Source: Muribaculaceae bacterium
GTDB taxonomy: Bacteria; Bacteroidota; Bacteroidia; Bacteroidales; Muribaculaceae
Direction: 5' to 3'
Length of the DNA: 64,000 nucleotides
NCBI GenBank assembly: GCA_022509065.1
Contig: JAFLTY010000003.1
Coordinates: forward strand, 1,900-65,899
The notes under the pieces were generated by a model, which did no database searches, was not told where the DNA came from, and saw only the letters and a list, made by a program, of their open reading frames with translations. Positions 9,953-61,835 of this stretch are shown piece by piece. Every line of letters begins with the position of its first letter. The first letter of the stretch is position 1. The position numbers and the translations under genes are program-made.

Positions 9953-9995
9953 TATTTAATTCTTAGAATTTCATGGTTGATTTGTCAGACTGGCG

Positions 9996-11561
9996 TCATT
10001 TACCCAACACCACTTTGCTGTGGCCAACGATATAGACATCTTTGGGGAGAGAATCCCTGACATTTTTCAGGGTACCGATGTGACGGCCGGTCAGCGAATA
10101 GACTTCTTCTTCATCGTCCACATTTCTCATGATGATATCTTCTACGGCGTTCATCTGGTCTTTCGAAAGCAACCACTTTGCCAACAACGCATATTCAGAA
10201 GCAAAAGCGAACTGATGGAAGGCTTTTGTCACCACATCGTTACCCCAGCCGTCAAGCAGTCGAATGGGCAAAAGGTTATTGCGATTGTGATTTTCAAAAG
10301 CATAATCCAACGTTGTCTGAAACGAGGTCAATCCCGTGTTGGCCGATGTGTTCGTCGTGTAGGGATATGCATCGACATACGAACGCATGAGAACATCGTT
10401 AAACCAGGTGTTAAACCCGGATGTCGCTGTCGCGTCGGTGTTAAACTCGTAGGCATTCTGTTTGCGCACATATTTGGCAAATTTGTTCAGAGATGCCTTG
10501 CTGATTGTTGAAAGATCGTCGCGATAGTCCTCATCATCTGTGACACGGAAAAGTTCAGCGGCACCGGCAATCATTGTGCCTGTGTTGTAACTATAAAAAT
10601 TTCCTGTGGGACCGCCACAATCGACATGCTGGCGAAAACCCCTCGACACGATTATTTCACCGGGAGCTCCCATCATGTCCCAGAAAACGCCGGACGAATG
10701 TTGGAGCTTGTCTTTCTGCCAGTGATAGATGCGTTTGGCAAAATCAAGATAGTAGTCGGTTCGTGGTAATGTTTCCTTTACCACATTGTTTGTTTCTGCT
10801 TGCCGATAACAATACTGGACAGTATCGTCGCGGTCAGAGTATATGTCAGAGAGCCACACAAGCGGCTGAATAATGGGCGAGTTACTGCAAGCGTGTTTAG
10901 AGTTGTAACCGGGTCCCCATGTAATGCCGCCGTATTCCTCACCGTTTTCGTCTCGCCAGCAATCCCATCCTTCAAGGACATAGTCTGTCAGATAGGACGC
11001 AAGCTCCAGATAATCTTCGTTGTCAGTTAACCTATAGGCGCGGATGAGTTCGCGAGCCAACCACATCTGGTCATCGTAGACATTTAGGATGCCGGTGACA
11101 TTTGCCGTACCGCGAACCGAAGCTCGGGGCACAGCATATACGCTCCACTCTTTATTGCTGGTAGCATACGAAGACAGCCGATAGGTTCCTCGGTAATATT
11201 CGAGATTATCAATAAGGCGAATAAGCTGTTCCTTATATTTGTCAAAGTAGTCGTCGTAAAGTATAGGGTCAATTTCCTTTAGCTCGTTAAGCGCCTCGAG
11301 GATAGAGTTATGTGCCTCGATAGCCGCGGTGTACGGCCAAACATCGCTTGGACCGCTGGCGCTCCCGGTCTGGGTGTTATAAGTATCGGCCATGTACATG
11401 TTGTCTTCCGTACCCTTCATCGAGGAGGACCATGCGGCATCGGCTATCGCCATGGCGCGCGTGATGTTATTTACCGCCGTCTGCTGAGCGTCGGTCAACT
11501 GACCTACGACAGCACAACTCGACCAAAGAATCCCTGTCAACAACAATACTACTTTTCTCAT
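9996..11561 (-). CDS. GH76-like alpha-1,6-mannanase candidate with short T9SS-like C-terminal tail
   Basis: YDDQMWLARELIRAY shows the Asp-Asp pair context of GH76. GGITWGPGY and VWPYTAAIEAH blocks are also present. N-terminal signal is MRKVVLLLTGILWSSC. The tail is VYSLTGRHIG...DVYIVGHSKVVLGK. Confidence 0.6.
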   Translation of the reverse strand: MRKVVLLLTGILWSSCAVVGQLTDAQQTAVNNITRAMAIADAAWSSSMKGTEDNMYMADTYNTQTGSASGPSDVWPYTAAIEAHNSILEALNELKEIDPILYDDYFDKYKEQLIRLIDNLEYYRGTYRLSSYATSNKEWSVYAVPRASVRGTANVTGILNVYDDQMWLARELIRAYRLTDNEDYLELASYLTDYVLEGWDCWRDENGEEYGGITWGPGYNSKHACSNSPIIQPLVWLSDIYSDRDDTVQYCYRQAETNNVVKETLPRTDYYLDFAKRIYHWQKDKLQHSSGVFWDMMGAPGEIIVSRGFRQHVDCGGPTGNFYSYNTGTMIAGAAELFRVTDDEDYRDDLSTISKASLNKFAKYVRKQNAYEFNTDATATSGFNTWFNDVLMRSYVDAYPYTTNTSANTGLTSFQTTLDYAFENHNRNNLLPIRLLDGWGNDVVTKAFHQFAFASEYALLAKWLLSKDQMNAVEDIIMRNVDDEEEVYSLTGRHIGTLKNVRDSLPKDVYIVGHSKVVLGK

Positions 11562-25427: not shown

Positions 25428-27473
25428 TCAGTTTGCTCGAGGGAAAGCAGCTATTCTGAGTCGCGCCGCTCCCATAGGTATCAGTGTAATAGAAGTTTCC
25501 TGGTCGCTCTGTGGCACAAACTTGGTGGGCAACAGGTCGGTAAGACCGGTTTCGTCGTATCCCCACGAAGGGATTTGACGGCCTACAGCCTTAAATTCGA
25601 AAGGCACGCTTTCGGGGGTGAAAGGCATGTTGTCAGCAGGCCATTCTTTTTTTGTAACCACGAAATCAACTGGCAAGTTATTGTCATCGACTTTGAGAGC
25701 ATAGTTCCAAGCAGATCCGGGACGTAACACATAGCATGGCCACAACGAAGCGTCCACACCCTCCTGCCAATGCGAGTCATCCTGCACGAAATCGGTGTCG
25801 CGGCTATCATGAGGTTCTATTATCTCGTCTATCTTGAGCGACAGGGTCAACGGACCGTAGTTGACACTTACGCTCGATTTGTTTTGTTGCCACACATCGG
25901 CTGTAACCGACATGGGTAAGGTGAGGCGCACTTCGTCGCCATCTTTCCATTCCCGGTTGAGACGTATGTATTTCCCTTCGGCTGCGGCTATGTCCTGAGC
26001 CTCCCCGTTAACGGTCACCGAAGCGTCTTTCGCCCATGCGGGAACACGAAGATACAACGGGAAAGACACAGTGCCGTCGGTATTGACAGTTATGGCTACT
26101 GTCTCGTCAAAGGGATATTCTGTTTTCTGAGTCAGTGTCACTTTCTTTCCGTTCGCGACGTTTGCAGTCGTTGTATTGGCGGCATATAGCATTGTGGCGA
26201 GTCCCCCGTCGGCGGTGGCCATCACCAGATGCTCGGCGTAATATGGCCAACCCATACCGTGATTATGCTGGCAACAACGGCTACTGAAAGGGCTCATCGA
26301 AAGCATACCGCGTAAATTGTTATCAATGCCGGGTCCATGCAGTTTTTCGTCACTGATGGCCATATTGGCAGATGTGATGTACCGCAACGATTTCATGTCG
26401 GGCATCAAAGCGGCGGTAAACGAGTTCAAAGCTACGTTCTCGCAGTGATCCGCCCAGAAAGGGTCACCGGTTATGCCCATCAGTATCTCGTCACTGGCCA
26501 TGTGTTCGACAAGAGCGCATGTCTCGGCGCCTTGACGAGGATCGAAATATCCCGCGCGTGCATTCTCGTCGGCGGCATACATACCGCCGGGCATCTGTCC
26601 GTAGCGGACTCGCATGGTGTTAAAATTATCATAGGTATGACGTAACATGGCCTCGTCGCCGGTGTACATGTAATAGGTCGCCGGTTCGCGAAAACCCTGT
26701 GCAACGTTAACTCCGTGCCAGTTAGGCAGATCGTTGTCGAGCGTCCAGTCGGATGTGTTTCTGTGAAGCTTGTCAATGAGCGGCAGGACACTTTCGTCTC
26801 CCGTACGGTTATACAGCCATAGGACACTCCATAGGTTATCGCCACCACGTTTCTCCTGCCACAGCCCTTTGAGGAACTGTGAGTCGGGGACGGTCATCTC
26901 CCATTTGAAATAATTTGTCATAGCGTCAAGGACACGCTCATCACCGCTGTTTTCATAATATGTCTGAAGAGCCCAAAGCATAATCATCTGCGCCCACAGT
27001 TCGGGGTTACCGTTTTCGTAGTTGTGCGGTCCCAGGAAACCGTCTGACTTTAGATTGGACAGCACAGCGTCAAACCACACCTGCGCCTCTTTTTTCATTT
27101 CCTCGTCATCAAGGATATACGCCAGGCTGCAATAACCTCGCAACCAATATGGCACTTCTTCCCATCCGTGGTCGCCACTGTCGCTCAGCCATTGGTTATT
27201 GTTCTTATCCAACCATGCGCTTACAGTGCCAAGTTTGCCGTTAAGTCCCTCTTTTTGTAATTCGAGATACTGACGTAGCCAACCACCAGGTTGAACAGCA
27301 CCGACCGGCAACTTTAACAACGGAGCCTGCACGAGGGGTGCGCGGAAGTTGGTATAATTCTGATTAGTACCCTCTAAGGGTCGTTCGACCACTGTTGTCT
27401 GACCGCAAACCCCCATGGCACCTATTGACATGGCCAAGGCCGCAAGCACGGTTTTTATATTGATTTTGTTCAT
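25428..27473 (-). CDS. GH127/GH146-type (DUF1680) beta-L-arabinofuranosidase-like cysteine glycosidase
   Basis: GAETCALVEHM (Glu-x-Cys) and SRCCQHNHGMGW (Cys-Cys) match the Zn/Cys catalytic signature known for the GH127 enzyme HypBA1. It has a signal peptide. It starts only 29 nt after the stop of paralog A. Confidence 0.75.
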   Translation of the reverse strand: MNKINIKTVLAALAMSIGAMGVCGQTTVVERPLEGTNQNYTNFRAPLVQAPLLKLPVGAVQPGGWLRQYLELQKEGLNGKLGTVSAWLDKNNNQWLSDSGDHGWEEVPYWLRGYCSLAYILDDEEMKKEAQVWFDAVLSNLKSDGFLGPHNYENGNPELWAQMIMLWALQTYYENSGDERVLDAMTNYFKWEMTVPDSQFLKGLWQEKRGGDNLWSVLWLYNRTGDESVLPLIDKLHRNTSDWTLDNDLPNWHGVNVAQGFREPATYYMYTGDEAMLRHTYDNFNTMRVRYGQMPGGMYAADENARAGYFDPRQGAETCALVEHMASDEILMGITGDPFWADHCENVALNSFTAALMPDMKSLRYITSANMAISDEKLHGPGIDNNLRGMLSMSPFSSRCCQHNHGMGWPYYAEHLVMATADGGLATMLYAANTTTANVANGKKVTLTQKTEYPFDETVAITVNTDGTVSFPLYLRVPAWAKDASVTVNGEAQDIAAAEGKYIRLNREWKDGDEVRLTLPMSVTADVWQQNKSSVSVNYGPLTLSLKIDEIIEPHDSRDTDFVQDDSHWQEGVDASLWPCYVLRPGSAWNYALKVDDNNLPVDFVVTKKEWPADNMPFTPESVPFEFKAVGRQIPSWGYDETGLTDLLPTKFVPQSDQETSITLIPMGAARLRIAAFPRAN

Positions 27474-27502: not shown

Positions 27503-28801
27503 TTATTTGATAATTAATTTCTTTCCGTTTTGTATATATATACCGGGAGCAAGCCCTTTTGTGTCTGTGCTGATGTATCTTCCGTAAAGGTCATAAATCC
27601 GATTGTCGGCAAAGCTTTTCTCTTCGCTAACAGGGAAGAACACAAAGTTTTGACTATATGGCATTTCTACAGCGAGTCCATAGTCAATATGGCCACCTCC
27701 GGCACCTTGCATCAATGATACGGCAAGTATGTTATCGCCCTCGTGAAGCAACGCTTTCTGCTCAGCGTTGAAGTTAAGACGGGCGTAGTCGTTATCGTTC
27801 CAGCCGGAGGCACTCCATAGCTGCGTGCCGTTTAGATACATGACAGGGTTTTCGTCATAGCTGCATGTCATAACCACACGGGAGTCCTCGTTGTTAATAG
27901 CCGCCATGTCATCGGCTGTAAGCGTAAAATGCCGTCGGACAAGAATGGGTCGTACCTGGCTTGGCCATTCCGTGACAAGGAACATATTCCTGTCGTTACT
28001 GAACGGTCCCACACCTTCAATCCAGAAAGTCTCGTCCTCGTCGCTACCGAACCATTCGGCGCGCTCGGCAGGTTCGATGTCTGTGTTGTAGTTAAGTATA
28101 TAGTATTTGCAGGGCCATGAGCCATCGGCAACCGTGTGCAGCAAAGTCCTGGTGACGGTCACGTCGGCGCCGTAGAGTCCGCAGTCGGCGAAAGCGCCTC
28201 CCCAGTTCTGATGGACATGGACTGCAATTATATTTTCTCCTTGTTTTAACAATGCTTTCTTATCGTCAGAAAGAAGCACGTATTCGTCATTGTTCCAGCC
28301 GTCCGTGACGCTGTGAACCATTTCTCCGTTTATATACCATTCGGACGGCGCGTCATCGTGTCCGCATGCCAGATATACAGGGCTGTCAGGCACGTTATCG
28401 AGTGTGAAAGTGCGCCGCAAATAAATCTCACCGGTTATGTCCGATGTTATCCAACGATATGAAGTCTGGCCATTGTAAACGGCGTCCGAGCTGAACGGAG
28501 CCCGTTGGATGCTCCACCCTTCTTCACCGTTATATCCGGGCATGTACCATGCATTCCCCTCATCGTCGGCGCCCGGTGTCGCCCATATCCTGTTATAGTC
28601 GGCGTCTGCGTAACGTTTGCCTTCGTTAAACACCCATACATTCGCTTCATAAGGAAGTGCGGGCGTGTACTGAGATGAAGGTAGAATAATGTTGTTGGGA
28701 TTGAAAGTGCTTCGCAACTCGTCCGTTACAGCCATAGCGCTAAAAGATGTTGACACCATGACGAGAGCCACTAACATTCCGGGATATTTGTTTTGTAACA
28801 T
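27503..28801 (-). CDS. Paralog A: secreted protein made of two jelly-roll (galactose-binding-like) modules plus short T9SS-like tail
   Basis: Signal peptide. Module 1 ends AVHVHQNWGGAFADCGLYGAD and module 2 ends AVSLMQGAGGGHIDYGLAVEMP. The tail is NRIYDLYGRYIS...APGIYIQNGKKLIIK. It aligns with the N-terminal halves of paralogs B and C. Confidence 0.7.
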   Translation of the reverse strand: MLQNKYPGMLVALVMVSTSFSAMAVTDELRSTFNPNNIILPSSQYTPALPYEANVWVFNEGKRYADADYNRIWATPGADDEGNAWYMPGYNGEEGWSIQRAPFSSDAVYNGQTSYRWITSDITGEIYLRRTFTLDNVPDSPVYLACGHDDAPSEWYINGEMVHSVTDGWNNDEYVLLSDDKKALLKQGENIIAVHVHQNWGGAFADCGLYGADVTVTRTLLHTVADGSWPCKYYILNYNTDIEPAERAEWFGSDEDETFWIEGVGPFSNDRNMFLVTEWPSQVRPILVRRHFTLTADDMAAINNEDSRVVMTCSYDENPVMYLNGTQLWSASGWNDNDYARLNFNAEQKALLHEGDNILAVSLMQGAGGGHIDYGLAVEMPYSQNFVFFPVSEEKSFADNRIYDLYGRYISTDTKGLAPGIYIQNGKKLIIK

Positions 28802-28814
28802 ATAGGCTTTTTTA

Positions 28815-28853
28815 AAGTGCGCCTCGAAAGTTCGAGTCTTTCGGGGCGCACTT
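28815..28853 (-). promoter_or_regulatory. Strong stem-loop (16-bp arms, one mismatch) between paralogs B and A
   Basis: AAGTGCGCCTCGAAAG pairs with CTTTCGGGGCGCACTT across a 7-nt loop. No T-run follows on the minus strand and no TAnnTTTG box was seen upstream of A. It is more likely an attenuator or processing site than a full terminator. Confidence 0.45.
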
Positions 28854-28889
28854 ATTGTGTAATATAGTCAGAATCTAACTATGGGGTCA

Positions 28890-31577
28890 TTAGCGAACAA
28901 TAAACTTCTTACCGTTGCGGATATAGAGGCCGGGAACATTGGCGTTCTTAACTTCGATACCCTGCAGGTTGAAGATGCGGTTGTCTTCTGTTTCGGGAGC
29001 TACCTTAACGTCTTCCACACCGTCAACTACGGGTTTGCCAAGGTAAGTCAGTTTGAAGTTGTCAACGACAACCCAGTCTTGTTCTGCGTCAGACTGATTT
29101 TTGTAAACACCTATTACGGCTTTTTCCTGGCCTTCTTCGACTGTGAAGGGAACTACTGTCTTGTAAAGACCGGCTTTAAAGTAGCTGGTTACTTGCATGC
29201 ATCCGTCGGGGAACTCTACTTGCTCGCCGTCCTCGGTAGTTGTCACGCGACCTTCACCGGGAGCCATATTGCTTTCGCTCAGGATGTTGGGAAGTTCAAC
29301 GTCTTCGCCATCTTCATCGCTTCCTGCCACTACATAAGCGTACTGGGCGCGGTCATTGTCCACTTGATAATCGAAGCTGCCATTACGATAGAAACCTTGT
29401 ACTGTGAGTACATAGTCGCCTTCGGGAAGGCCTTCGATGAACTGGTTTAAGGTCATATCACTCGTATTCCACGATTCGAGAACGAAGTCATAATGATTTC
29501 CACCTCTTTCCCAAACACTGGCGTTCTCGATTTCCCAAGCATCCATAGTTACGCGTTGGTTGAAGCCGGGATTGACGATAAAGAGCGATGCGTCAACAGG
29601 ATTTTCTTCGCTGGCTTCGTCAAGAAGGGCAAGACGTTCTTCGCGAGTAACGAGTTTCCACATTGCGTTTTCGTTGGCTTTGTCAAGGTTGCGCGATTCG
29701 GTGCATACGTTTGTTTCGTCGCTCTGACCGCCGTCAACGCTTCCGTAGGGATCCCACTGTATGTGTACGTCGGGATAATCGCTCTGTACGATAAAGTAAA
29801 TATTGTCACGACCTTCTACGGGGACAAACGCCCAACCGTCCTGACCTACTGTGTGGCCGGCATCCATATAGCCGCGATAGTTCAGATAATGGTTGTTTTC
29901 ACCGTTATAAAGACCTGTTTCGATAACGAACGAAGGAACTCCAGCTTTGCTGTCCTCGATTTTTTCCATGAGGGTAAGTTCGTCGCCATAGAAGCCGAGA
30001 GCTGCGTGAGCACCCCAGTCTGAACCGCCCTGGAGGAACTGTTTCTGACCTACGTTGTAAAGATAGAATTTGCCTTCGGCGGCTTCGTTGCCTTCAAATA
30101 CATCTTCGTGTTTGTCGGCGGCTGCACGACGGCGAGCGTAACGCAGCGTGCGCAGAGCGTTATTGTAATCATCGCGTGTCTTAGCGGCAGCGAACTGCTC
30201 GACAGCGGTAGCGTCACTGTAAATCTTAAGAGTTGCGTTGAAGTTATTGATAGCTTCCGAAGCGTCGCGTACAGCGGCTATAGCGCCCTGAAGAGCATCT
30301 ATGGCACTATCGAAATCTTTCACGTTTTCACCGGTGGCCAATACTGCTTCGGCTGTTTCTATTGCTTTTTCAACTTGAGGTGTCTGCAAAGCTTCACGGG
30401 CTTCTTCTATGAGCTGAGAGAGAAGAGCTTTATGCAGAGTAAGGTCTTCGGTGAAAGTGAAACCGTCGCAAGGCATTTCAACATAGAGACCGAAATCGAT
30501 GTGACCGCCGCCACTGCCTTGTTGAGCCGATACGCCAATCACGTTTTTACCTTCCACAAACAGAGCTATTTGGTCTGGGTTGAGTTCGTGAAGGGCATAA
30601 TTGGAGTCGTTCCAACCTTCGGCACTCCAAATTTCAGTTCCGTTCAGATAAACATGAGGGTATTCGTCATAGCTGCAAGTCAGATATACTTTGCCATGAT
30701 CTTTAAGAGCTTCAAGGCTTTCGTCTGTCAATGTGAAATAACGACGAACCAGTATGGGGTTAGCATCGCTGTTCCAATATGTTGTGCGGAATTCGTCATT
30801 ACTGTTGCTGTAGGGACCCGAAGCTATTGTCCAGTTCGAATCATCAGCATTGATAGCAAAGCAACCGTCGGCCACTGCACCGGCGATAGCATCGTTATTT
30901 TCAACGAGAGTATATTTGCTTACCCAGCTCTTACCTACTGAAACAGGAGCGTGGATGTATAGTTTTACGTCAGCGCCATAAAGACCGCAGTCGGCGTAAG
31001 CGCCACCCCAGTTCTGGTGTACGTGAACGGCCATAAGGTTTTCACCTACCTGCAGAGCAGCTTTTTCTTCGTCCGAAAGAAGTACAACGGCTCCTTCGTC
31101 CCATCCTTCAGTTTCGAAATGAACGAGTTTACCATTAATATACCATTCTGACGGGGCGTCGTCACGACCGCAAGCAAGATAAACGGGACCTTCAGGAATT
31201 TCATCGAGAGTGAAAGCGCGACGTATATAGATGTCACCCATAATTTCTCCGGCAATCCATTTGTCAGTGGTGAAAGGAGATTCCTTTACTTCCCAGTCGA
31301 TATCAGCGCTGTTTGTAAGAGTATATGCGTTTTCAAACCACTCGTTACCTTCAGCATCCGCTTCGGGAGTGCCCCAGATTTTGTTGTAATTAGGTTCGCT
31401 ATACCTTTCGCCGGTATTTACAATCCATACATCGGCTGTCCAGGGACTGTCCGGAGTGTGACGCGATGACGGTAGTATCACCTTGTTTGTGTTAATTGAC
31501 ACAACTGTTTCTCCGTTTGCGTAACCACTAATTATGGTAGCAACGGCAACGGAAAGGGTTAATAAAAATTTTTTCAT
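28890..31577 (-). CDS. Paralog B: two jelly-roll modules + helical linker + ~430-aa C-terminal beta-rich region + short T9SS-like tail
   Basis: The ATG at 31577 gives MKKFLLTLSVAVATIISGYA; the track start 31610 is a GTG. Blocks HVHQNWGGAYADCGLYGAD, GSGGGHIDFGLYVEMP, YLYNVGQKQFLQGGSDWGAHAALG and NAMWKLVTR are present. The tail is NRIFNLQGIEVKNANVPGLYIRNGKKFIVR. Confidence 0.7.
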   Translation of the reverse strand: MKKFLLTLSVAVATIISGYANGETVVSINTNKVILPSSRHTPDSPWTADVWIVNTGERYSEPNYNKIWGTPEADAEGNEWFENAYTLTNSADIDWEVKESPFTTDKWIAGEIMGDIYIRRAFTLDEIPEGPVYLACGRDDAPSEWYINGKLVHFETEGWDEGAVVLLSDEEKAALQVGENLMAVHVHQNWGGAYADCGLYGADVKLYIHAPVSVGKSWVSKYTLVENNDAIAGAVADGCFAINADDSNWTIASGPYSNSNDEFRTTYWNSDANPILVRRYFTLTDESLEALKDHGKVYLTCSYDEYPHVYLNGTEIWSAEGWNDSNYALHELNPDQIALFVEGKNVIGVSAQQGSGGGHIDFGLYVEMPCDGFTFTEDLTLHKALLSQLIEEAREALQTPQVEKAIETAEAVLATGENVKDFDSAIDALQGAIAAVRDASEAINNFNATLKIYSDATAVEQFAAAKTRDDYNNALRTLRYARRRAAADKHEDVFEGNEAAEGKFYLYNVGQKQFLQGGSDWGAHAALGFYGDELTLMEKIEDSKAGVPSFVIETGLYNGENNHYLNYRGYMDAGHTVGQDGWAFVPVEGRDNIYFIVQSDYPDVHIQWDPYGSVDGGQSDETNVCTESRNLDKANENAMWKLVTREERLALLDEASEENPVDASLFIVNPGFNQRVTMDAWEIENASVWERGGNHYDFVLESWNTSDMTLNQFIEGLPEGDYVLTVQGFYRNGSFDYQVDNDRAQYAYVVAGSDEDGEDVELPNILSESNMAPGEGRVTTTEDGEQVEFPDGCMQVTSYFKAGLYKTVVPFTVEEGQEKAVIGVYKNQSDAEQDWVVVDNFKLTYLGKPVVDGVEDVKVAPETEDNRIFNLQGIEVKNANVPGLYIRNGKKFIVR

Positions 31578-31636
31578 AAAATATTGATTTAAAAAGTTAA
31601 GTTGGTTCACGGTACAGATTGCTACTTTTAGCGCTA

Positions 31637-31644
31637 CAAAATTA
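31637..31644 (-). promoter_or_regulatory. -7 promoter box (TAATTTTG on minus strand) for paralog B
   Basis: The reverse complement of caaaatta matches TAnnTTTG, about 60 nt upstream of the ATG at 31577. Confidence 0.5.
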
Positions 31645-31675
31645 TGGTCAATATATCGTGTTTGTTAATAATATT

Positions 31676-31705
31676 TGTTCAATATATAGTATTTTTTAAT
31701 CATTT
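31676..31705 (-). promoter_or_regulatory. Operator candidate for paralog B (TGTTCAATA proximal, degenerate TAATCATTT distal)
   Basis: The proximal 9-mer is exactly 31 nt from the -7 box and the distal one is 21 bp further. This is the same geometry as at 19864-19893 and 34852-34881. Confidence 0.45.
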
Positions 31706-31869
31706 TTACTTGTTTGGCTGCATTGTTTAGTGTGTATGTAGCGTGGGGTCGCCCGTAAGTGTTCTTTACGACCAAAAACATGTCAAATCCCGGCTCACAT
31801 ACCGCTAATCGACAACTGCATCATGCAAAGTAAAACTTTTTTTAGAGCTGCCTCCTAAACTTCCTTAGC

Positions 31870-31894
31870 AAAAAAAGCCTCGCCGGCGCGAGCC
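31870..31894 (-). terminator. Rho-independent terminator after paralog C
   Basis: The minus strand reads GGCTCGC-GCCG-GCGAGGC followed by TTTTTTT (the plus-strand A-run at 31870-31876). Confidence 0.55.
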
Positions 31895-31929
31895 AACGAG
31901 ACTTTTTATTATTAAGAGTTGGAGTTGTC

Positions 31930-34749
31930 TTAACGGACAATGAACTTCTTACCGTTGCTGATGTAGATGCCGGGAGTGTTGGCATTTTTCACTTCCATAC
32001 CCTGGAGGTTGAAGATACGGTTGTCAGCGGGACGTGCCACGCTATCGAACATAACATCTTCGACACCTGCAAGGTAATCTTTAACAGCCTGTTTGGTTGT
32101 GTCCTTACCGTAATATTTCAGACGGAAGTTGTCGACTACAATCCAGTCACCGGGTTCGTCACCGGCTTCTTCTTTGTACACACCGACCGACATATCAACG
32201 CCATCACCTTGTTCCACTACGGTATAGGCCTTATAAAGACCGAGTTTGAAGTAATTGGTGGCCTGGTTGCAGTATTCGGGAATGTGCCAGTTCTTTGTGC
32301 CATCGGCATTGCTGTAGTCTGCACCTTCGCCGGGAGCTTTTCCGCTTTCCGAAAGGATGTTGGGAAGCTGGACGTCGTCCTCATAGTCATTGCCGGCGAA
32401 AAGCCATGCATTCTGTTTTTCGGGCAGGTTGGCCTGACCTAAGCATTCGTAACCGTCGATATTGTCATGATATTTGTGTGAACCGTTACGGTAAAAACCT
32501 GTAACACTTACTTCATAGATACCTTCGGGAAGACCTTCGACCATTGTTACGAGTTCCGAGCTTTCTTGGTTCCACGATTCAGCTGTGAAATCGGGATAGT
32601 TGCCGCCACGTCCCCAGAATGCGAAGTTAGTTACAGACCAATTGTCAATGGTTTCGCGCTGATTGAAGTTGGGGTTGACGATGTAGTACGAAAGGTCAAC
32701 GGGGTTTTCGAGCGATGCGGTGGCGATAAGAGCGTCGCGTTCGGCGCGTGTCACCAGTTTCCACATAGCGTCTTCGTTAGTGGGATCGAGATTGCGAGAC
32801 TCGGTGCAAACGTTTGTTTCGTCGTTGTTGCCACCGTCTACGCTTCCGAAGGGATTCCATTGAACGTGTACATCGGGATAGTCAGCCTGTACAATATAAT
32901 ATGTGTTAGTACGACCTTCAACGGGAAGGAATGCCCAACCACCGGCACCTGCGTCGTAACCGCTGTCCATATAACCGCGATAACCGAGGAAATGTTGTTC
33001 GGCGCCGTTATAGAGACCGGTTTCGATGACGTAAGCTTTTGTTCCGGCGTTAGTTTCGGCTATTTCGTCGATGAGGTTGATTTCGTTACCGATAATACCG
33101 AGAGCGGCGTGTGCGCCCCAGTCAGAACCGCCCTGAAGGAACTGTTTCTGACCTACGTTGTAAAGATAGTAAGCGCCTTCGGCGGGTTCAGCGCCTACAA
33201 ACACGTCTTCCTGAGTTTCGGCAACCGAACGACGGCGAGCGAAACGCAGAGTCTTGATAGCGTTTGCATAATCGTCGCGTGTTTGAGCAGCTTCGAATTT
33301 AGCTGTTGCTTCCGCATCGGTAAAGATGGACTGAGTGTCATAATAAGCCTGAATGTCGTTGCGTGCAGCACGGATAACGGCTATGGCGCTCTGTAGTTTA
33401 TCGATAGCTTCGAGAAGAGCTGTCGATGTGGGTGTGCCGGCGAGGATAGCTTCGGCATCTGCTATCTGAGTAGCAAAGTGAGGTGTCGTGGGAAGCGACT
33501 TAGCCTGGTCGATAAGTGCCTGCAGCTGTTCCTTGAGAGGTTCTGTACCGCCACTCATCTCAACATTGTCGCAATAAGATACTGAATAGAAACCGTAGTC
33601 AATGTGACCACCGCCACCACCGCGCTGTACTGATACTGCAAGAACGTTGTCACCTTCAACAAGAAGAGCGACCTGTTCGGGGGTCAGTTCGTATGTATCG
33701 TAGCGTGCATCGTTCCAACCGTCTGCGCTCCAGATAAGTTCGCCGTTGAGGTAAACTTTAGGATACTCGTCGTAGCTGCATGTCAGGAAAGCGTTGCTCA
33801 TAGCAGCGATTTCCGAAGCGGTAAGGGTGAAGTGACGACGAACGAGCAGGGCTGTACCCATATTCTCTTCACCAAGGTCAGTGTTACTGTTCCAATAGGT
33901 AACACGGAACTGGTCGTCGCTGTTACTGAACGAACCCTGACCTACTGTCCAGTCGGATTCGTCAGCGTCTTTGGCAAAAGCGCCGGCTTCGACTGCGGCA
34001 GCGATATCTTCGTTAGTGTCAATTAATTTATAAACACAGTCCCAAGCACCGTCAGCAACGGTATTGAGGTAGCTTGTCTTATAGTCGGCAGCGTACAGAC
34101 CGCAGTCGGCGAAAGCACCGCCCCAGTTCTGGTGCACATGCACGGCTAATACGTTTTCGCCCGGCTTAAGAAGAGCCTTCTGCGACTCTTCCAAAAGAAC
34201 ATATTCTCCGTTGTTCCAACCGTCGGCAACCATGTGTACAAGGACACCGTTGAGATAGTATTCAGCGGGAGCGTCATCGTGTCCGCAAGCAAGGTAAATG
34301 GGACCGTCGTGTACTGTGTTGAGAGTGAATGTGCGACGCATGTAGAAATCGCCCATGATGTCGCTGGTGATCCATTGGAATGATTTGTTGTCTTTATAAT
34401 ACTCGTCCGAGCTGAAAGGAGCGGTTTCGAGAGTCCATTCCGAACTTTCACCGTTAACAGGCGAGTAATTCACCGCATACCATGCGTTGCCGGCTGCGTC
34501 GTTGGCGGGCACGCCCCATACATGGTTGTAGTTTTCGTTTTCGTAACCTTGCGCACCTTCGTAACGTTGACCTGTGTTAACAACGTAGACAAGAGCCTGA
34601 TAGGGAAGGTTGGGTGTATACTCCGACGAAGGGAGTATAACATTGGCAGCATTCCACGTCGGTGTAACGTCACCTTCGGCATACGCTGCGACGGGAGCCA
34701 TCGCTATGGCGGCGACAGCAAACATCCCGGCTAAGTAAAATTTTTTCAT
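31930..34749 (-). CDS. Paralog C: same architecture as B (939 aa)
   Basis: Signal MKKFYLAGMFAVAAIAMAPVAAYA. Blocks HVHQNWGGAFADCGLYAAD, RGGGGGHIDYGFY, YLYNVGQKQFLQGGSDWGAHAALG and DAMWKLVTR are present. The tail is NRIFNLQGMEVKNANTPGIYISNGKKFIVR. Confidence 0.7.
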   Translation of the reverse strand: MKKFYLAGMFAVAAIAMAPVAAYAEGDVTPTWNAANVILPSSEYTPNLPYQALVYVVNTGQRYEGAQGYENENYNHVWGVPANDAAGNAWYAVNYSPVNGESSEWTLETAPFSSDEYYKDNKSFQWITSDIMGDFYMRRTFTLNTVHDGPIYLACGHDDAPAEYYLNGVLVHMVADGWNNGEYVLLEESQKALLKPGENVLAVHVHQNWGGAFADCGLYAADYKTSYLNTVADGAWDCVYKLIDTNEDIAAAVEAGAFAKDADESDWTVGQGSFSNSDDQFRVTYWNSNTDLGEENMGTALLVRRHFTLTASEIAAMSNAFLTCSYDEYPKVYLNGELIWSADGWNDARYDTYELTPEQVALLVEGDNVLAVSVQRGGGGGHIDYGFYSVSYCDNVEMSGGTEPLKEQLQALIDQAKSLPTTPHFATQIADAEAILAGTPTSTALLEAIDKLQSAIAVIRAARNDIQAYYDTQSIFTDAEATAKFEAAQTRDDYANAIKTLRFARRRSVAETQEDVFVGAEPAEGAYYLYNVGQKQFLQGGSDWGAHAALGIIGNEINLIDEIAETNAGTKAYVIETGLYNGAEQHFLGYRGYMDSGYDAGAGGWAFLPVEGRTNTYYIVQADYPDVHVQWNPFGSVDGGNNDETNVCTESRNLDPTNEDAMWKLVTRAERDALIATASLENPVDLSYYIVNPNFNQRETIDNWSVTNFAFWGRGGNYPDFTAESWNQESSELVTMVEGLPEGIYEVSVTGFYRNGSHKYHDNIDGYECLGQANLPEKQNAWLFAGNDYEDDVQLPNILSESGKAPGEGADYSNADGTKNWHIPEYCNQATNYFKLGLYKAYTVVEQGDGVDMSVGVYKEEAGDEPGDWIVVDNFRLKYYGKDTTKQAVKDYLAGVEDVMFDSVARPADNRIFNLQGMEVKNANTPGIYISNGKKFIVR

Positions 34750-34812
34750 AATTGGTAAATTTGATTAAATGGAATTTTGTTCACGGTTTAGACTTGTGCT
34801 TTTTAAGCGCTA

Positions 34813-34820
34813 CAAATTTA
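34813..34820 (-). promoter_or_regulatory. -7 promoter box (TAAATTTG on minus strand) for paralog C
   Basis: The reverse complement of caaattta matches TAnnTTTG, 63 nt upstream of the ATG at 34749. Confidence 0.5.
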
Positions 34821-34851
34821 AAGCCGCTATATTACAACCCATAAAAATCGC

Positions 34852-34881
34852 TGTTCAATTATCGTTACATTCTGTTCATTT
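34852..34881 (-). promoter_or_regulatory. Operator candidate for paralog C (TGTTCAATT, TGTTCATTT; 21-bp spacing)
   Basis: The proximal 9-mer (34852-34860) is exactly 31 nt from the -7 box. The distal one is at 34873-34881. Confidence 0.5.
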
Positions 34882-34919
34882 TATTAAAAACCGTATCAGT
34901 AGCCACGTCAAAAATCTTT

Positions 34920-34960
34920 ATTTGACCACATTTCAACGATATTTGAACAAAATTTGACCA
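34920..34960 (+). promoter_or_regulatory. Operator candidate for the 1504-aa gene (ATTTGACCA, ATTTGAACA, extra ATTTGACCA)
   Basis: The 9-mers at 34920-34928 and 34941-34949 are 21 bp apart, and the second ends exactly 31 nt before the -7 box. A third copy sits at 34952-34960. The set is the mirror image of 34852-34881. Confidence 0.5.
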
Positions 34961-34980
34961 AAATTCTTGTTTTGTTGGAT

Positions 34981-34988
34981 TAATTTTG
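34981..34988 (+). promoter_or_regulatory. -7 promoter box (TAATTTTG) for the 1504-aa gene
   Basis: TAnnTTTG match 65 nt upstream of the ATG at 35053. Confidence 0.5.
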
Positions 34989-34991
34989 CGA

Positions 34992-35037
34992 CACAAGGAA
35001 AAATAACCAAATTCCACAAGGAAAAATAACCAAATTC
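34992..35037 (+). repeat. Perfect tandem duplication, 2 x 23 bp (CACAAGGAAAAATAACCAAATTC)
   Basis: Read directly: 34992-35014 is identical to 35015-35037. It starts 3 nt after the -7 box and ends 15 nt before the ATG. Confidence 0.95.
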
Positions 35038-35052
35038 AATACCGTAATAAAA

Positions 35053-38000
35053 ATGAAAAAAATCAGTCTGTACCTATCGGCACTATCGTTAATGGCCACG
35101 GCTTCCCTGCCCGCCACAGCTCAGACAGCAGCCGATTTCGTTCCCTACCGGCAAACCGACATTCGTATGCCGTCGGTTCCCCTGTTGGTGAACGACCCCT
35201 ATTTCTCTATCTGGTCTAACTATGACGCACTCAACGGCGGTCCCACACGCATGTGGTGCGAACATGAAAAAGCAATTGAAGGCATACTGCGCGTTGATGG
35301 CACAGCCTATCGCTTTATGGGCACAGGCATCAAAACGCTGTTGCGTCCCATCGCCGGTATGACTGTCGACGGCACCGACTGGTCGGGTAGAGTCAGCTAC
35401 AACAAACGCACTGACGCCCAATGGGCAACTCCCGGCTTTGACGACAGCAGTTGGGCTGTCGAGGAGGCCGCATGGGGAACACCCGGTGAATATCCCAATG
35501 TCAGAAACAAATGGACCGGCGACAACAAAGATATCTACGTGCGCCGTACCGTTACCCTCACTCCCGAGGACTTGGAGAAAGACCTGTGGGTAATGTACTC
35601 GCACGATGACGTTTTCGAACTCTACGTTAACGGCACACGCGTTGTATCGACAGGCGAGACATGGCGTCAAGGCGAGCAACACCGCCTCAGCGATGCCGAA
35701 AAAGCTCTTCTTAAACCCGGCGACAATATCATAGCAGGCTATTGCCACAATACAACCGGTGGCTCGTACATCGATTTCGGTCTGTATGAAAACACTCTGC
35801 CCGAGGGAGCCGATACCCAGATGGCTCAACAGAACTCGGTTTATGTCCTTGCCACAAGTTCCTACTACAACTTCACCTGTGGGCCTGTAAACCTCGACTT
35901 GGTGTTTACCGCCCCCATGCTGATTGACGATCTCGACCTTATCTCTACTCCCATCAACTTCATTTCCTATCAAGTGACAGCCAACGACGGTAAGGAACAT
36001 GACGTGCAGTTCTATCTGGGCACATCGGCACAGCTCACTGTCAACGAGATGAGCCAACCCACCATAACCACCACTGTCAAGGAAGGCGGAATAACATACG
36101 CCAAAGCTGGCTCCGAGGCTCAGAATATACTTGGACGCTCGGGCGATATGATTTCGATTGACTGGGGTTATCTCTACATACCAGCTATTAACGGCGAAGT
36201 CAGTGTGGCTCCTGTCGAGACATCCGAAGCTTACTTCATTAAAACAGGTAAACTTCCCGAAAATGTCAGCGGCGAAATACGCAGTACAAACCGCGCCAAC
36301 ATGCCTGTCATTAACTTCGTTAACGATATGGGTAAAATAAAAGAAGGCCGCTCATTTATGATGATAGGCTATGACGAAGTGTACGACATGCAGTATATGC
36401 ACAATAACTACAAGGCATACTACGCTCGTAACGGCAAAACAATATTTGACGCATTTAAAGAGTTCAACCGCGACTATTCCAGCCTGATGGAGCGTTGCCG
36501 CGCACTTGACAAAATGATATACGACGACGGCCTTGCGGCAGGCAATGTCAAATATGCCGAACAACTTTCGGGTTGCTACCGCCACGTCATGGCCGCTCAC
36601 AAACTCTTTGAGGACAACACAGGTAAAGCACTGTATTTCTCGAAAGAAAACAAGTCTAACGGTTGCGTTAACACCGTCGACCTTACATACCCCGAATCGC
36701 CTCTCTATCTCCTCTACAACCCCGAGTTGCAGAAAGGTATGATTCTTTCAATACTTGACTACGCATTGTCCGACGCACGCAAGGGTAAAAACTGCGCCGC
36801 CCATGACCTGGGACAATATCCTCTGGCAAACGGACAGGTGTACGGCGACACAATGCCTCTTGAAGAATCTGCAAACATTATCCTGTTGGCCGATGCTATT
36901 TGCCGTATCACCGGCGATGGTGAATGGCTAAAACCCTATCGCAACGTCCTGAAAACATGGGCCGACTACTGTTATGCAGAAGGCCAGAATCCCGGCAACC
37001 AGCTCTGTACAGACGACTTTAAGGGTCCAAGCGAACAAAACACTAACCTTTCCGTCAAGGCCATTATGGCAGTGGCCGCTTACTCAAACCTTATCCCTTA
37101 CATCGGAGCTAATGCGCGTGACATCGAGAAATATCAAAAATACGCACAGGATATGGCTCTTATTTGGGAAGGAACCGCACGCGACGGTGACCACTACCGC
37201 ATGGAATTCCACAAACCGGGCACATGGAGTCAGAAATACAACCTTGTATGGGACAAAATGTGGGGTCTCGAGCTTTTCCCACAGGAAGTACTCGACCGCG
37301 AAATCAAATTCTACCTCAACCATCAGCAGAAATACGGACTGCCCCTTGACAGCCGCGACTTCATGACAAAGAGCGACTGGATAATGTGGACTGCCTCAAT
37401 GGCTCCCGACACCGAAACATTCCTTAAATTCTCGGACAAACATTACGACTACATCAACGAAACCACCTCGCGAATACCGTTGAGCGACTTCTTCTGGGCT
37501 CACACCGGCGTATCGTGCAACTTTAGCGCACGTTCGGTCATTGGCGGTCTGTGGATGAAAGTCCTCATGGATAAATACGCCCCCGTTAAGGAAGCTACCG
37601 CTTGGTCGCCCAAAGGAAACCACATCAAAACACGTTGGGCAGAACAAGTCAATCCCGAGTGTCCTCTTCCTGAACATCCCAAACCTCTGATGGTACGCAA
37701 CGAATGGAAAAACCTCAACGGACTTTGGGAATATGCCATAGGCGAATCAAACGGCACAGCGCCGACAGTTTGGGAAGGCGAGATTCTCGTTCCCTACCCC
37801 ATAGAGTCAAGTCTGTCGGGCGTTATGCGTCCTCTCGAACCGGGCAAAGCGCTTTGGTATAAAAAAGACATAGTTGTTCCCGAGGAATGGGACGGCAAGA
37901 AAGTGCTTCTGAACTTCGGAGCTGTCGACTATCAGGCAACCGTGTATGCCAACGGAACAAGCGGGCGCAACCAGATTGGTTCGCATATCGGTGGCCATAC

Positions 38001-39567
38001 GGCATTTACTGTTGACCTCACCAATTATCTCACCGATGGTAAAGCGACAGTCTACGTCAAAGTTATCGACAACACTGACGAGGGCAGACAACCTGTAGGC
38101 AAGCAGCGTCGTTATCCCGCCGGAAACGGTGACATCAATTACACCTCGACTTCAGGCATCTGGCAGACCGTATGGTTGGAAGCCGTTCCCCAAGCCTACA
38201 TCACCGACATACGCACTACTCCCGACGTAGATAACAGCAACCTCACTTTCGATGTCGCTCTGAAAGGTACTATAGGCGGCGAAGTTGAAGTCAAGGTTCT
38301 TGACGGTAACACTGTTGTGGCACAGAAATCTGTACCTGCAGCCAACACCACGACATTAACCCTCGATATTCCCGACGCTAAGTTGTGGAGTCCGGCACAT
38401 CCCAACCTCTATAACGTGCAAGTGACTTACACCAACGGCGATAACATCGATAAGGTTGACAGCTATGCCGCTCTTCGCAAGATATCATACGCCAAAGACG
38501 ATAAAGGGTTCTGGCGCCTTCAACTTAACAATAAAGACCTTTTCCAATTCGGTCCTCTTGACCAAGGTTATTGGCCCGACGGCCTGTTGACAGCTCCTAC
38601 CGACGAAGCTCTTCGCTTTGATTTGGAAAAAACAAAAGACTGGGGCTTCAACATGGTTCGCAAACACATGAAAGTCGAACCGGCACGCTGGTATTGGCAC
38701 TGCGACAGCCTTGGATTACTGGTATGGCAGGATATGCCCTCGCAATTCACCACCGACGAAGGCGACTGGCACGTCTTTGACTGGTATCCCGAACATAACT
38801 GCTCGATAGACCCGACAATCGAGAAAAATTTCAAAAACGAATGGCAGGAAATCATCGAACAGCACTATTCTAACCCGTGTATTGTCGTTTGGACACCGTT
38901 TAACGAACGCTGGGGTCAGTTCAAGACAGCCGAGATAGTGGCTTTCACTCAACAACTCGATCCCACGCGCCTGGTTAACCCGGCCAGTGGCGGCAACCAC
39001 TACAAACTTGGCGAAGGTACATTTGTGGATCAACACACCTATGACCAACCGATAGTCGTTTACGAAGGAGTGTTCGACTATACACGCCCCTACGTGTTGG
39101 GCGAGTATGGAGGCCTTGGTCGCAACATATCCGGTCATCGCTGGTATGAAAAAGACTCGCAGACATACAACACCTACCCCAACGAAAAAGCCATCACGGA
39201 CGCCTACGTCACACTGGTGGGTCAAATACAGAACATCGCCAACGGATACGTTAACAACGGACGCCATATTTGCTATGGAGCCGCGGTTTACACACAGACC
39301 ACCGATGTCGAAACAGAAGTAAACGGCATCATGACATACGACCGCGAAGTCATTAAGTTTGATGAAGACCGTATACGCGCTGCCGCCCACGCGCTAACCT
39401 CGATGTTTGGAAATGAAGACTCGGGCGTGGCTGTAGTCCCTTTCGTTGACGGCACCGGTGAACCTATCTATTATGATGTAATGGGGATTCGTCATAATGC
39501 GCCGGTGCCCGGAATCAATATAATTCTAAACCCCGACGGTTCAGCTTCTAAACAGCTGATTAAATAA
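35053..39567 (+). CDS. 1504-aa chimeric secreted enzyme: glutaminase-A-like (DUF4964/DUF5127/DUF4965/DUF1793-type) module with inserted jelly-roll, fused to a complete GH2 module, plus T9SS-like tail
   Basis: The N-terminus PSVPLLVNDPYFSIWS...LRVDGTAYRFMG is glutaminase-like. The insert WATPGFDDSSW...IYVRRTV...LSDAEKALLKPGDNIIAGYCHNTTGGSYIDFGLY aligns with paralogs A-C. The (alpha/alpha)6-type part reads VDLTYPESPLYLLYNP...AHDLGQYP...EESANIILLA. From about nt 37600 the GH2 blocks are NFGAVDYQATVYANG, GIWQTVWLE, WTPFNERWGQF and VLGEYGG. Confidence 0.7.
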   Translation: MKKISLYLSALSLMATASLPATAQTAADFVPYRQTDIRMPSVPLLVNDPYFSIWSNYDALNGGPTRMWCEHEKAIEGILRVDGTAYRFMGTGIKTLLRPIAGMTVDGTDWSGRVSYNKRTDAQWATPGFDDSSWAVEEAAWGTPGEYPNVRNKWTGDNKDIYVRRTVTLTPEDLEKDLWVMYSHDDVFELYVNGTRVVSTGETWRQGEQHRLSDAEKALLKPGDNIIAGYCHNTTGGSYIDFGLYENTLPEGADTQMAQQNSVYVLATSSYYNFTCGPVNLDLVFTAPMLIDDLDLISTPINFISYQVTANDGKEHDVQFYLGTSAQLTVNEMSQPTITTTVKEGGITYAKAGSEAQNILGRSGDMISIDWGYLYIPAINGEVSVAPVETSEAYFIKTGKLPENVSGEIRSTNRANMPVINFVNDMGKIKEGRSFMMIGYDEVYDMQYMHNNYKAYYARNGKTIFDAFKEFNRDYSSLMERCRALDKMIYDDGLAAGNVKYAEQLSGCYRHVMAAHKLFEDNTGKALYFSKENKSNGCVNTVDLTYPESPLYLLYNPELQKGMILSILDYALSDARKGKNCAAHDLGQYPLANGQVYGDTMPLEESANIILLADAICRITGDGEWLKPYRNVLKTWADYCYAEGQNPGNQLCTDDFKGPSEQNTNLSVKAIMAVAAYSNLIPYIGANARDIEKYQKYAQDMALIWEGTARDGDHYRMEFHKPGTWSQKYNLVWDKMWGLELFPQEVLDREIKFYLNHQQKYGLPLDSRDFMTKSDWIMWTASMAPDTETFLKFSDKHYDYINETTSRIPLSDFFWAHTGVSCNFSARSVIGGLWMKVLMDKYAPVKEATAWSPKGNHIKTRWAEQVNPECPLPEHPKPLMVRNEWKNLNGLWEYAIGESNGTAPTVWEGEILVPYPIESSLSGVMRPLEPGKALWYKKDIVVPEEWDGKKVLLNFGAVDYQATVYANGTSGRNQIGSHIGGHTAFTVDLTNYLTDGKATVYVKVIDNTDEGRQPVGKQRRYPAGNGDINYTSTSGIWQTVWLEAVPQAYITDIRTTPDVDNSNLTFDVALKGTIGGEVEVKVLDGNTVVAQKSVPAANTTTLTLDIPDAKLWSPAHPNLYNVQVTYTNGDNIDKVDSYAALRKISYAKDDKGFWRLQLNNKDLFQFGPLDQGYWPDGLLTAPTDEALRFDLEKTKDWGFNMVRKHMKVEPARWYWHCDSLGLLVWQDMPSQFTTDEGDWHVFDWYPEHNCSIDPTIEKNFKNEWQEIIEQHYSNPCIVVWTPFNERWGQFKTAEIVAFTQQLDPTRLVNPASGGNHYKLGEGTFVDQHTYDQPIVVYEGVFDYTRPYVLGEYGGLGRNISGHRWYEKDSQTYNTYPNEKAITDAYVTLVGQIQNIANGYVNNGRHICYGAAVYTQTTDVETEVNGIMTYDREVIKFDEDRIRAAAHALTSMFGNEDSGVAVVPFVDGTGEPIYYDVMGIRHNAPVPGINIILNPDGSASKQLIK

Positions 39568-58398: not shown

Positions 58399-59063
58399 AT
58401 TATTTAAAAAACTCGTTGGTTGAATTAATTCGTTAAAAAATTATTGGGAAACGATAACCAACCCCTTATATGGAGTCGGAAAACTAACCGGTTGGCACTG
58501 TCAGAGCAAGAGGCGGTTCAACATTTCCTCACAAATGTCGTGAGAATTTGATAAATCTGCAAGTAATAGTAACACTAAAATCGGAATAAATGTCCTCCGA
58601 GGAGGCTATATGTATCAATTTTTATCATCCTTTCGTCCGTAAAAACTAAGGCTCTAATGCATTTCGTATAATAAAATGGTACTTTCGTATATCATGGCAA
58701 AAAATACTTGGGGAATATATCCATATTTTCTTCCTTTGCTCAACAATAGGCAATTTCGGTTTGGTCATGCCTATTGTTCTGCATATGTAGTAATAAAACG
58801 ACAGGAGTTAAACTCAATAGATGCTAATATTCGATTTTATTGATAGAATAATATAATGATATCAAAACCTTTAACGTTAAAGGATTTGGAGAATTGTCGG
58901 GAATCCCTGAACCTCAAATGCATCAGTTCCGGTAAATCACATGAGTGGAGTGTAGATAAATATTAGTACATTTTATGATCGCCGTTTCTAAGACAATATA
59001 CTTTAAATCAAACCGTTTTCTTATTAATATGTTTTAGCTTTTAATAAAATCTAATTTATTATT

Positions 59064-61251: not shown

Positions 61252-61252
61252 T

Positions 61253-61804: not shown

Positions 61805-61835
61805 GTTTTCTATATAGTCAATTAGACGTGTTTAG

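Follow-up and report, generated by a model that had tools for sequence, protein, structure and literature searches.

Candidate glycan-capture proteins with a duplicated jelly-roll head in a mannan-type locus of a Muribaculaceae bacterium

Introduction

What do secreted proteins that carry no recognisable enzyme domain contribute to a polysaccharide utilization locus (PUL)? The question is raised by a window of 64,000 nucleotides, the whole stretch of DNA analysed here, from a Muribaculaceae bacterium (GenBank assembly GCA_022509065.1, contig JAFLTY010000003.1, positions 1,900 to 65,899). Three consecutive minus-strand genes in it, named A, B and C, encode paralogous proteins of 432, 895 and 939 amino acids. 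A first-pass annotation made from the sequence alone had described them as secreted proteins built on a duplicated module, and had proposed a locus-specific, recently expanded family involved in glycan binding or surface display. The open reading frames (ORFs) are exactly as it claimed, and each begins with a signal peptide. The reading favoured here, with moderate confidence, takes A, B and C for glycan-capture proteins without catalytic activity, secreted or exposed at the surface, that belong to a PUL directed at a decorated alpha-mannan, probably fungal mannan. It is supported by the folds of the proteins, the lack of a catalytic domain, their export signals and a divergence rate like that of surface proteins. 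The non-catalytic glycan binding first proposed remains the best reading, with a hidden enzymatic activity still its rival.

The duplicated head and its fold

The three proteins have in common an N-terminal head of ~385 aa, 50-54% identical in a three-way alignment, in which a ~170-aa jelly-roll module occurs twice. The first copy carries the motif AVHVHQNWGGA[FY]ADCGLY[GA]AD and the second Q.G.GGGHID[YF]G[LF]. The two copies match each other by BLASTP at E = 4e-15 in A, 8e-13 in B and 1e-14 in C; judged from these comparisons the head is an internal duplication, in agreement with the module and the motifs first described. A model of A, built with AlphaFold2 (AF2) from 45 homologs (pLDDT 89), contains two beta-sandwiches, a disordered linker and a three-stranded tail. 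Compared with the PDB by Foldseek, this model matched GH2 N-domains, GH35 beta-domains, the CBM-like modules of RsgI anti-sigma proteins and a rhamnosidase containing CBM67 (carbohydrate-binding module, CBM), with no catalytic fold among the matches. For the GH2 N and GH35 jelly-rolls the head reached probability 1.0 and E values down to 1e-8. A profile of the A family matched, in the PDB, the N-domain of the pneumococcal GH2 enzyme BgaA (4cu6/4cuc; E = 1.4e-3) across the ...RR.F.L...NG..V...N.IAVHV...G.Y pattern, and this alignment places AVHVHQNWGGAFADCGLY on the final two strands and the loop of the jelly-roll. The Pfam matches are marginal: A scores 23.5 bits for PF13364 (cutoff 23) and 19 for PF02837 (cutoff 28), C scores 18.8 bits for PF22666 (cutoff 27), B has no match to the Pfam jelly-roll families, and among the 45 A-family sequences just 11 match PF13364 at E < 0.01. 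These marginal Pfam matches, the BgaA profile match and Foldseek all point to the galactose-binding-like, GH2-N-type jelly-roll to which the modules had been assigned.

The same module is found inside an enzyme of the locus. The protein encoded divergently from C, a fusion of a GtaA-like part with a GH2 enzyme, has at residues ~95-267 (35335-35853) a jelly-roll insert homologous to the modules of A, B and C, matching module 1 of A at E = 2e-19 and module 2 at E = 3e-13 by BLASTP. GtaA-like genes of related loci, which accompany A- or B-type genes, contain the same insert. The GtaA-like (DUF4964/DUF5127) family is a suspected glycosidase family without a known substrate (PMC9668830). Since the modules occur alone, in tandem, fused to varied partners and inserted in enzymes of the same locus, they behave like CBMs. 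The placement of A in an operon with a GH127-family gene, together with the related jelly-roll in the GtaA-like enzyme, further suggests that the module probably recognises a feature that those enzymes process.

Could the head itself be an enzyme? Pfam, NCBIfam, sequence and profile searches of the PDB and Foldseek all failed to find a catalytic domain in A, B or C, as the first annotation had stated. The NCBIfam scan gave nothing meaningful, and neither the TIM-barrel catalytic domain of GH2 (PF02836) nor PF00703 had a match in the three proteins, whose models show beta-sandwich and helical modules only. The alternative that catalysis resides in the double jelly-roll, as a hydrolase or lyase family yet to be described that acts at the cell surface and yields oligosaccharides for a periplasmic GH127 to trim, is considered unlikely. 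Enzymes with a beta-jelly-roll fold exist, in families GH16, GH11, GH12 and PL7, but the structural neighbours of the head are all accessory domains of GH2, GH35 and GH78 enzymes or sensor modules, with no catalytic jelly-roll among them. An alignment of 45 sequences shows 76 invariant columns in the head, many of them His, Asp, Glu or Trp (H195, H197, Q198, N199, D206, D149, D150, D316, E317, H371 and D373 among them), as an active site might; the conserved blocks, though, map to the terminal strands of the GH2-N domain, and the motifs run in parallel through two modules that have diverged since their duplication, a pattern to be expected of fold signatures. That the gene strictly adjoins GH127, that it evolves at a rate near that of the surface enzyme GH76 and that the family is dark to Pfam would also fit an enzyme, against which stands the use of a homologous module as an insert within another enzyme. 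Because the HxHQNWGG..DCG and GGGHID blocks map to the last GH2-N strands and recur, weakened, in the GtaA-like insert, a structural or ligand-loop role is favoured for them.

Distribution and pairing of the short form with GH127

Contrary to what had been supposed, the family is neither locus-specific nor recently expanded. Clustered at 90% identity, the short form, of which A is an example, makes up at least 224 clusters, none of them named, from Prevotellaceae, Muribaculaceae and other Bacteroidales. A locus scan with one genome per species returned 76 loci, and 45 short forms with enough downstream sequence could be evaluated. In 39 of these 45 loci, all from other genomes, a GH127 gene follows directly on the same strand; the gap ranges from -4 to 262 nt and its median is 18 nt. 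Locus L024 is a further case with a mis-called start, and two exceptions are second copies, each 4.6 kb upstream of the GH127 that its locus already pairs with a short form. The pair was also recovered independently in Prevotella sp. E9-3 and in a Bacteroidales metagenome-assembled genome. This tight pairing had been missed by the first-pass annotation. GH76, GH92, GH125, a DUF4973 surface glycan-binding protein (SGBP), an epimerase, an acyltransferase, an EEP phosphatase, a hybrid two-component sensor (HTCS) and GH43 recur around the pair, and the recurrence of the same neighbours across genomes makes it a regular component of an alpha-mannan-type PUL.

The history of the array can be read from the heads. 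In a neighbour-joining tree the GH127-adjacent short forms make one clade. Another Bacteroidales genome, at locus L018, contains a divergent GtaA/GH2 gene, two long forms of 926 and 931 aa, a short form, GH127, HTCS and GH43, so that the array recurs there. The head of B is 60% identical to the long form of L018 with which it pairs and 52% identical to that of C, which places the duplication of B and C before the split of these organisms. Rumen Bacteroidaceae have a long form of 1,160-1,310 aa; of 26 loci that could be evaluated, 15 show a GH127 paralog (~50% identity) and a GtaA-like gene behind it.

When related genomes are compared, few proteins of the PUL are as poorly conserved as A, with 56-60% identity against 60-63% for GH76, 72-74% for the SGBP, 75% for SusD and 76-79% for GH127. 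The argument that A is highly conserved and hence an enzyme was rejected on these figures, and the rate fits a surface-exposed protein. The same figures bear on a second alternative, in which A would be a non-catalytic subunit or tether in a complex with GH127, supplying the substrate-binding modules and the surface anchor that GH127 lacks. The short gaps between the two genes, some of them overlaps (-4 nt), an order conserved in Prevotellaceae, Muribaculaceae and other Bacteroidales, and the presence of an equivalent jelly-roll in the same polypeptide in GH2 enzymes speak for such a complex; but A diverges much faster than its would-be partner, and the two are predicted to reside in different compartments. 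The GH127 orthologs have SPI-type (signal peptidase I) signal peptides with neither a lipobox nor a tail, and are on these grounds probably periplasmic, while A ends in an export-like tail. A complex of this kind is considered quite unlikely, and glycan capture by A outside the cell is preferred.

The C-terminal region of the long forms

B and C have an identical architecture and are 55% identical over 889 aligned positions. The four peptide blocks reported as identical between them (YLYNVGQKQFLQGGSDWGAHAALG, ETNVCTESRNLD, AMWKLVTR and LPNILSES) are all present in the three-way alignment. The region beyond the head had been left without assignment, and its composition can now be read from an AF2 model of residues 383-895 of B (513 residues, pLDDT 90) as a helical spacer, a beta domain, a CBM-like sandwich and a tail, of which the beta domain stays unassigned. 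Residues 384-486 form a helical bundle that matches the FIVAR-like helical region of PDB 7jrm in a profile search (E = 7e-5). In its helical bundle and its match to 7jrm the Ala-rich linker of B and C recalls the FIVAR domains of Gram-positive surface glycosidases; it differs in that neither protein reaches the Pfam FIVAR family (PF07554), for which the relatives P0174 and P0240 stay below threshold at 20-21 bits (cutoff 29.2). The beta domain, at residues 501-644, counts ~142 residues and ~12 short strands by DSSP on the model. It has no sequence relative in Pfam or the PDB, the top PDB profile match being CFAP161 at E = 1.3. A beta-trefoil (twelve strands in three units of four) would be a guess from the strand count alone, and hhalign self-comparison detected no internal repeat, threefold or other.

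A short helix leads to a beta-sandwich at residues 657-848, after which B ends in a disordered linker and the tail. Foldseek matched this sandwich to CBM16, CBM61, CBM4 and CBM27 and to domains IV and V of Vip3. It superposes on these type B CBMs with E = 1e-6 and TM ~0.6 normalised to the CBM, and has an NP.F...W / L.G.Y.L.V pattern in common with the CBM-like repeats of the GH53 galactanase 9fli. It is set apart from the type B families by the lack of sequence-level membership, with no match of B or C to a CBM family in Pfam, and by its place in a fixed cassette of spacer, beta domain, sandwich and tail.

This cassette, the C-unit, occurs behind several kinds of head: the double jelly-roll in B and C, a second C-unit in the 926-aa protein of L018 and in an abundant 883-aa family, and a Pfam-dark head of ~500 aa in Prevotella. 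The Prevotella proteins (990-1090 aa) are encoded beside the A-GH127 pair, after GH127 in L034 (10418-13540), L035 (10778-13933) and L049 (10504-13779), and upstream on the opposite strand in L001 (6565-9546). Their ~500-aa N-terminal half has no Pfam match and resembles nothing in the window. By these sequence comparisons the C-unit is a mobile cassette. Its middle domain is more widespread still: an exhaustive profile search gave 1,653 representative clusters at E <= 1e-3, 634 of them at E <= 1e-10. Two to four copies per protein are common, and the proteins reach 3,195 aa; nine of the largest, when scanned, showed either accessory domains alone (FIVAR, DUF5013, DUF4859, Calycin_like, CHB_HEX_C_1, Fn3_assoc) or no recognised domain.

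A modular, repeat-rich architecture with a FIVAR-like spacer, giant multi-repeat relatives of the middle domain and the Vip3-like matches would also suit adhesins or surface-coat proteins, attached for instance to host or fungal cells and present in the locus by linkage only. The position of the genes beside glycosidases in mannan-type PULs, kept in dozens of genomes, and the embedding of the same module in a PUL enzyme make this very improbable.

The C-terminal tail and the proposed route of export

All three proteins end in a segment overlooked at first, aligned as DNRI[FY][ND]L.G..(5-10 residues)..PG[IL]YI.NGKK.I[IV][KR]. This tail is ~30-35 aa long and is modelled as three short strands behind a disordered linker. 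When a hidden Markov model (HMM) of it was run over the ORFs of the window, the same motif was found at the C-terminus of the GH76 endo-mannanase (E value in Table 1). In the PDB the tail profile matched the C-termini of the rumen arabinanase 4kca (E = 3e-10) and of 7jvi/CapCBM89 (E = 2e-6), a module from a xylanase of capybara-gut Bacteroidetes (PMC8810776); both belong to exported CAZymes of gut bacteria. Weak matches (E = 0.3-0.6) were obtained to the C-terminal sorting domains of gingipains (5hfs, 7pq4, 5ag8, 5ag9).

Like the type A sorting domain of the type IX secretion system (T9SS), the tail closes proteins that carry a Sec signal and is set off from the rest of the chain by a disordered linker, and it has an 'iYdl.Gr.v' strand followed by G-[IL]-Y and a K-rich final strand ending in K/R, with the terminal K-x-x-K motif. 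The window itself encodes a protein with a canonical T9SS type A sorting domain. Muribaculaceae mostly carry a complete T9SS (PMC4936053), and the closest relatives of the locus sit in Muribaculaceae genomes. The tail may on this resemblance be a truncated T9SS-like sorting signal. At the other end, the signal peptides of A, B and C, announced by the first annotation, are of the SPI type and their predicted cleavage sites have no Cys; lipoprotein anchoring was rejected, a lipobox being absent from A, B and C as from the GH127 orthologs.

A proposed model of glycan capture and its place among known systems

The course of events could be as follows. An SPI-type Sec signal peptide, which is read directly from the sequence, takes each protein across the inner membrane, and the ~32-aa tail, similar to the last three strands of a T9SS sorting domain, would direct it to the outer membrane, there to be anchored or passed through. 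The two GH2-N-type jelly-rolls, once outside the cell, would bind the substrate, as their folds suggest, and in B and C the beta domain and the CBM4/16/61-like sandwich, held on the FIVAR-like spacer, may bind too; the substrate would thus be kept near the surface GH76 endo-mannanase and the SusC/D importer. A would represent the ancestral short form, in an operon with the periplasmic GH127-family enzyme, and would bind outside the cell a glycan feature later removed by GH127, a division of labour between the two proteins. B and C may have arisen from an old fusion of an A-like head with the widely used C-unit.

Several points weigh against this proposal. The invariant His, Asp, Glu and Trp residues of the head could, as conserved positions, also suit an active site; a generic protein made only of CBMs would not usually be tied so strictly, within an operon, to a single glycosidase; and no fold is assigned to the beta domain in the middle of B and C. 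The tail is short and missed by the T9SS HMMs, which weakens the proposed export route. A canonical T9SS sorting domain has 70-100 aa and seven strands, against ~32 aa and three strands here, where the N-terminal motifs are missing, and TIGR04183 and PF18962 found no match in the terminal 79 residues of the three proteins, even with the limit relaxed to E <= 10. A control ORF directly downstream of GH76 (9347-9955, <=202 aa) does have a canonical TIGR04183 domain (32.4 bits, cutoff 23).

The literature yielded nothing specific when searched for this type of PUL or for a characterised homolog, and the proteins are best placed by comparison with related systems. The heads have the galactose-binding-domain-like fold of GH2_N, GH2_N2 and BetaGal_ABD2 (PF02837, PF22666, PF13364); unlike those of GH2 enzymes, the modules stand alone and in tandem with no TIM-barrel, and the HxHQNWGG..DCG and GGGHID loops are specific to the family when set against GH2 and GH35 jelly-rolls. 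With the SGBPs of the SusE/F type the proteins have in common that they are PUL-encoded, non-catalytic, multi-domain beta-sandwich proteins and presumed surface holders of substrate. SGBPs, in contrast, are lipoproteins encoded beside susD, whereas A, B and C lack the lipobox Cys, have a T9SS-like tail and are encoded beside GH127; the locus has a DUF4973-type SGBP of its own. A, B and C would therefore appear to be PUL-encoded, CBM-like surface proteins, with familiar folds (galactose-binding-like and type B CBM) in undescribed sequence families.

The two families have no Pfam or NCBIfam model and occur in conserved mannan-type loci of Prevotellaceae, Muribaculaceae and other gut and rumen Bacteroidales. 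Should glycan binding hold, they become candidate CBM families, and would offer a handle on the substrates of the divergent GH127 subfamily and of the GtaA-like (DUF4964/DUF5127) enzymes. Should the short tail function in sorting, the T9SS cargo of gut Bacteroidales is larger than current HMMs suggest. Three bolder readings are considered unlikely: that the head, always encoded just ahead of a divergent GH127, is a new family of surface carbohydrate-active enzymes; that the tail is an unrecognised minimal outer-membrane export signal of many such enzymes in gut Bacteroidales, one that current T9SS HMMs miss; and that the middle domain is a new and very widespread glycan-binding fold family. 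No current idea of PUL function is overturned by A, B and C, which offer a lead to new CBM families and to the substrate of GH127 but do not amount to a novel kind of system. What is noteworthy in them is the strict operon of A with GH127, the widespread middle domain and the short export-like tail.

Control DNA of the array

As a sigma-70 promoter scan is uninformative in Bacteroidetes, the Bacteroidetes-type motif TAnnTTTG was searched in its place. It is present upstream of both B and C (Table 1), each time with a similar leader of ~60 nt, which indicates that the promoter was duplicated together with the gene. With the canonical hairpin and U7 tract behind C, these motifs uphold the separate promoters of B and C and the terminator of C that had been predicted. 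The accompanying claim that A is co-transcribed behind B is uncertain, because a very stable 15-bp hairpin, overlooked at first, lies between the two genes and read-through is not evident. The whole spacer folds at -29.3 kcal/mol (z = -7.4), and the hairpin is followed by UUUAAAAAAG, with no U-tract; a terminator, an attenuator and an RNA-stabilising or processing element are all possible. C and the GtaA-like/GH2 gene diverge from a control region in which two copies of CACAAGGAAAAATAACCAAATTC make up a perfect 23-nt direct tandem repeat; the repeat may be a binding site for a regulator.

An identical run of 33 nt between B and C, from which gene conversion or nucleotide-level constraint had been suspected, does exist, a few bases away from where it was first placed (30034-30066 and 33137-33169). 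It amounts to 10 consecutive identical codons within the most conserved peptide block. When the labels of identical and non-identical codons were permuted, a run that long or longer was obtained with P = 0.028, and identical degenerate residues are encoded by the same codon in 59% of cases around the run anyway, against 54% over B and C as a whole; the case for conversion or constraint was judged weak.

A 21-nt inverted repeat (20/21 matching) links the end of jelly-roll 2 of B (30482-30502) with the end of the GtaA-like insert (35768-35788). DUF4964/DUF5127 genes are reported to be targets of programmed inversion in another genome (PMC9881135). Such an inversion between B and the GtaA-like gene found no support here: the repeat arms are conserved in-frame IDFGLY codons, the window has no longer inverted repeats, and no recombinase was found among the window ORFs scanned.

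Genes and features of the locus

The PUL comprises GH3, GDSL esterase, acyltransferase, BNR protein, GH76, SGBP, SusD, SusC, TIG protein, GH43, HTCS, GH127, A, B and C, and continues with the GtaA-like/GH2 fusion, GH43, GH92, GH2, GH125, GH36, EEP, GH32 and galactokinase. A, B and C are ~10 kb away from susC/D, beside GH127. The mechanical ORF of B opens at a GTG at 31610; its 895 aa are counted from the ATG, and public gene calls likewise give 895 aa. The domain limits of C were carried over from B by alignment (Table 1).

Table 1. Coordinates of the array, its control DNA and neighbouring genes in the window
Feature	Position	Strand	Details
Gene A (short form)	27503-28801	minus	432 aa, ORF
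A, signal peptide	28730-28801		
A, jelly-roll 1	28157-28723		
A, jelly-roll 2	27653-28156		
A, disordered linker			
A, tail	27506-27610		
Gene B (long form)	28890-31577	minus	895 aa from ATG, ORF
B, signal peptide	31518-31577		
B, jelly-roll 1	30960-31511		
B, jelly-roll 2	30462-30959		
B, FIVAR-like helical spacer	30120-30428		
B, 12-strand beta domain	29646-30077		
B, CBM-like beta-sandwich	29034-29609		
B, tail	28893-28985		
Gene C (long form)	31930-34749	minus	939 aa, ORF
C, signal peptide	34678-34749		
C, jelly-roll 1	~34075-34671		
C, jelly-roll 2	~33565-34074		
C, helical spacer	~33223-33531		
C, beta domain	~32749-33180		
C, CBM-like sandwich	~32104-32712		
C, tail	31933-32025		
B-A intergenic	28802-28889	minus	88 nt, two hairpins, the larger GC-rich, 15 bp
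C-B intergenic	31578-31929	minus	C terminator hairpin and U7 tract 31879-31892; TAnnTTTG of B at ~31644
C/GtaA-like-GH2 divergent control region	34750-35052		TAnnTTTG of C at ~34820; 23-nt tandem repeat 34992-35037
GH127-family gene	25428-27473	minus	29 nt downstream of A; Pfam PF07944, PF20736
GtaA-like/GH2 fusion	35053-39567	plus	1504 aa; DUF4964-DUF5127-GtaA six-hairpin and complete GH2 (Pfam)
GH76 endo-mannanase	9996-11561		Short C-terminal tail shared with A, B and C (E = 7e-6)

No solved relative of the GtaA part of the fusion was found in the PDB. The GH127 of the window is distant from characterised members, its best PDB match having E = 1e-20. Many GH127 orthologs of the Prevotella type run on for a few more residues at the C-terminus and finish in ...[DP]DC[EDVY]E or a like sequence; this short extension is carried by the GH127 proteins of L023, L028, L030-L035, L037, L038, L040, L042 and L049, and is absent from that of the window. 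Further along, the stretch 58001-62000, which includes a DUF4932 gene (59064-60509), has a low GC content of 33-36%, against ~47% elsewhere, and may be foreign DNA.

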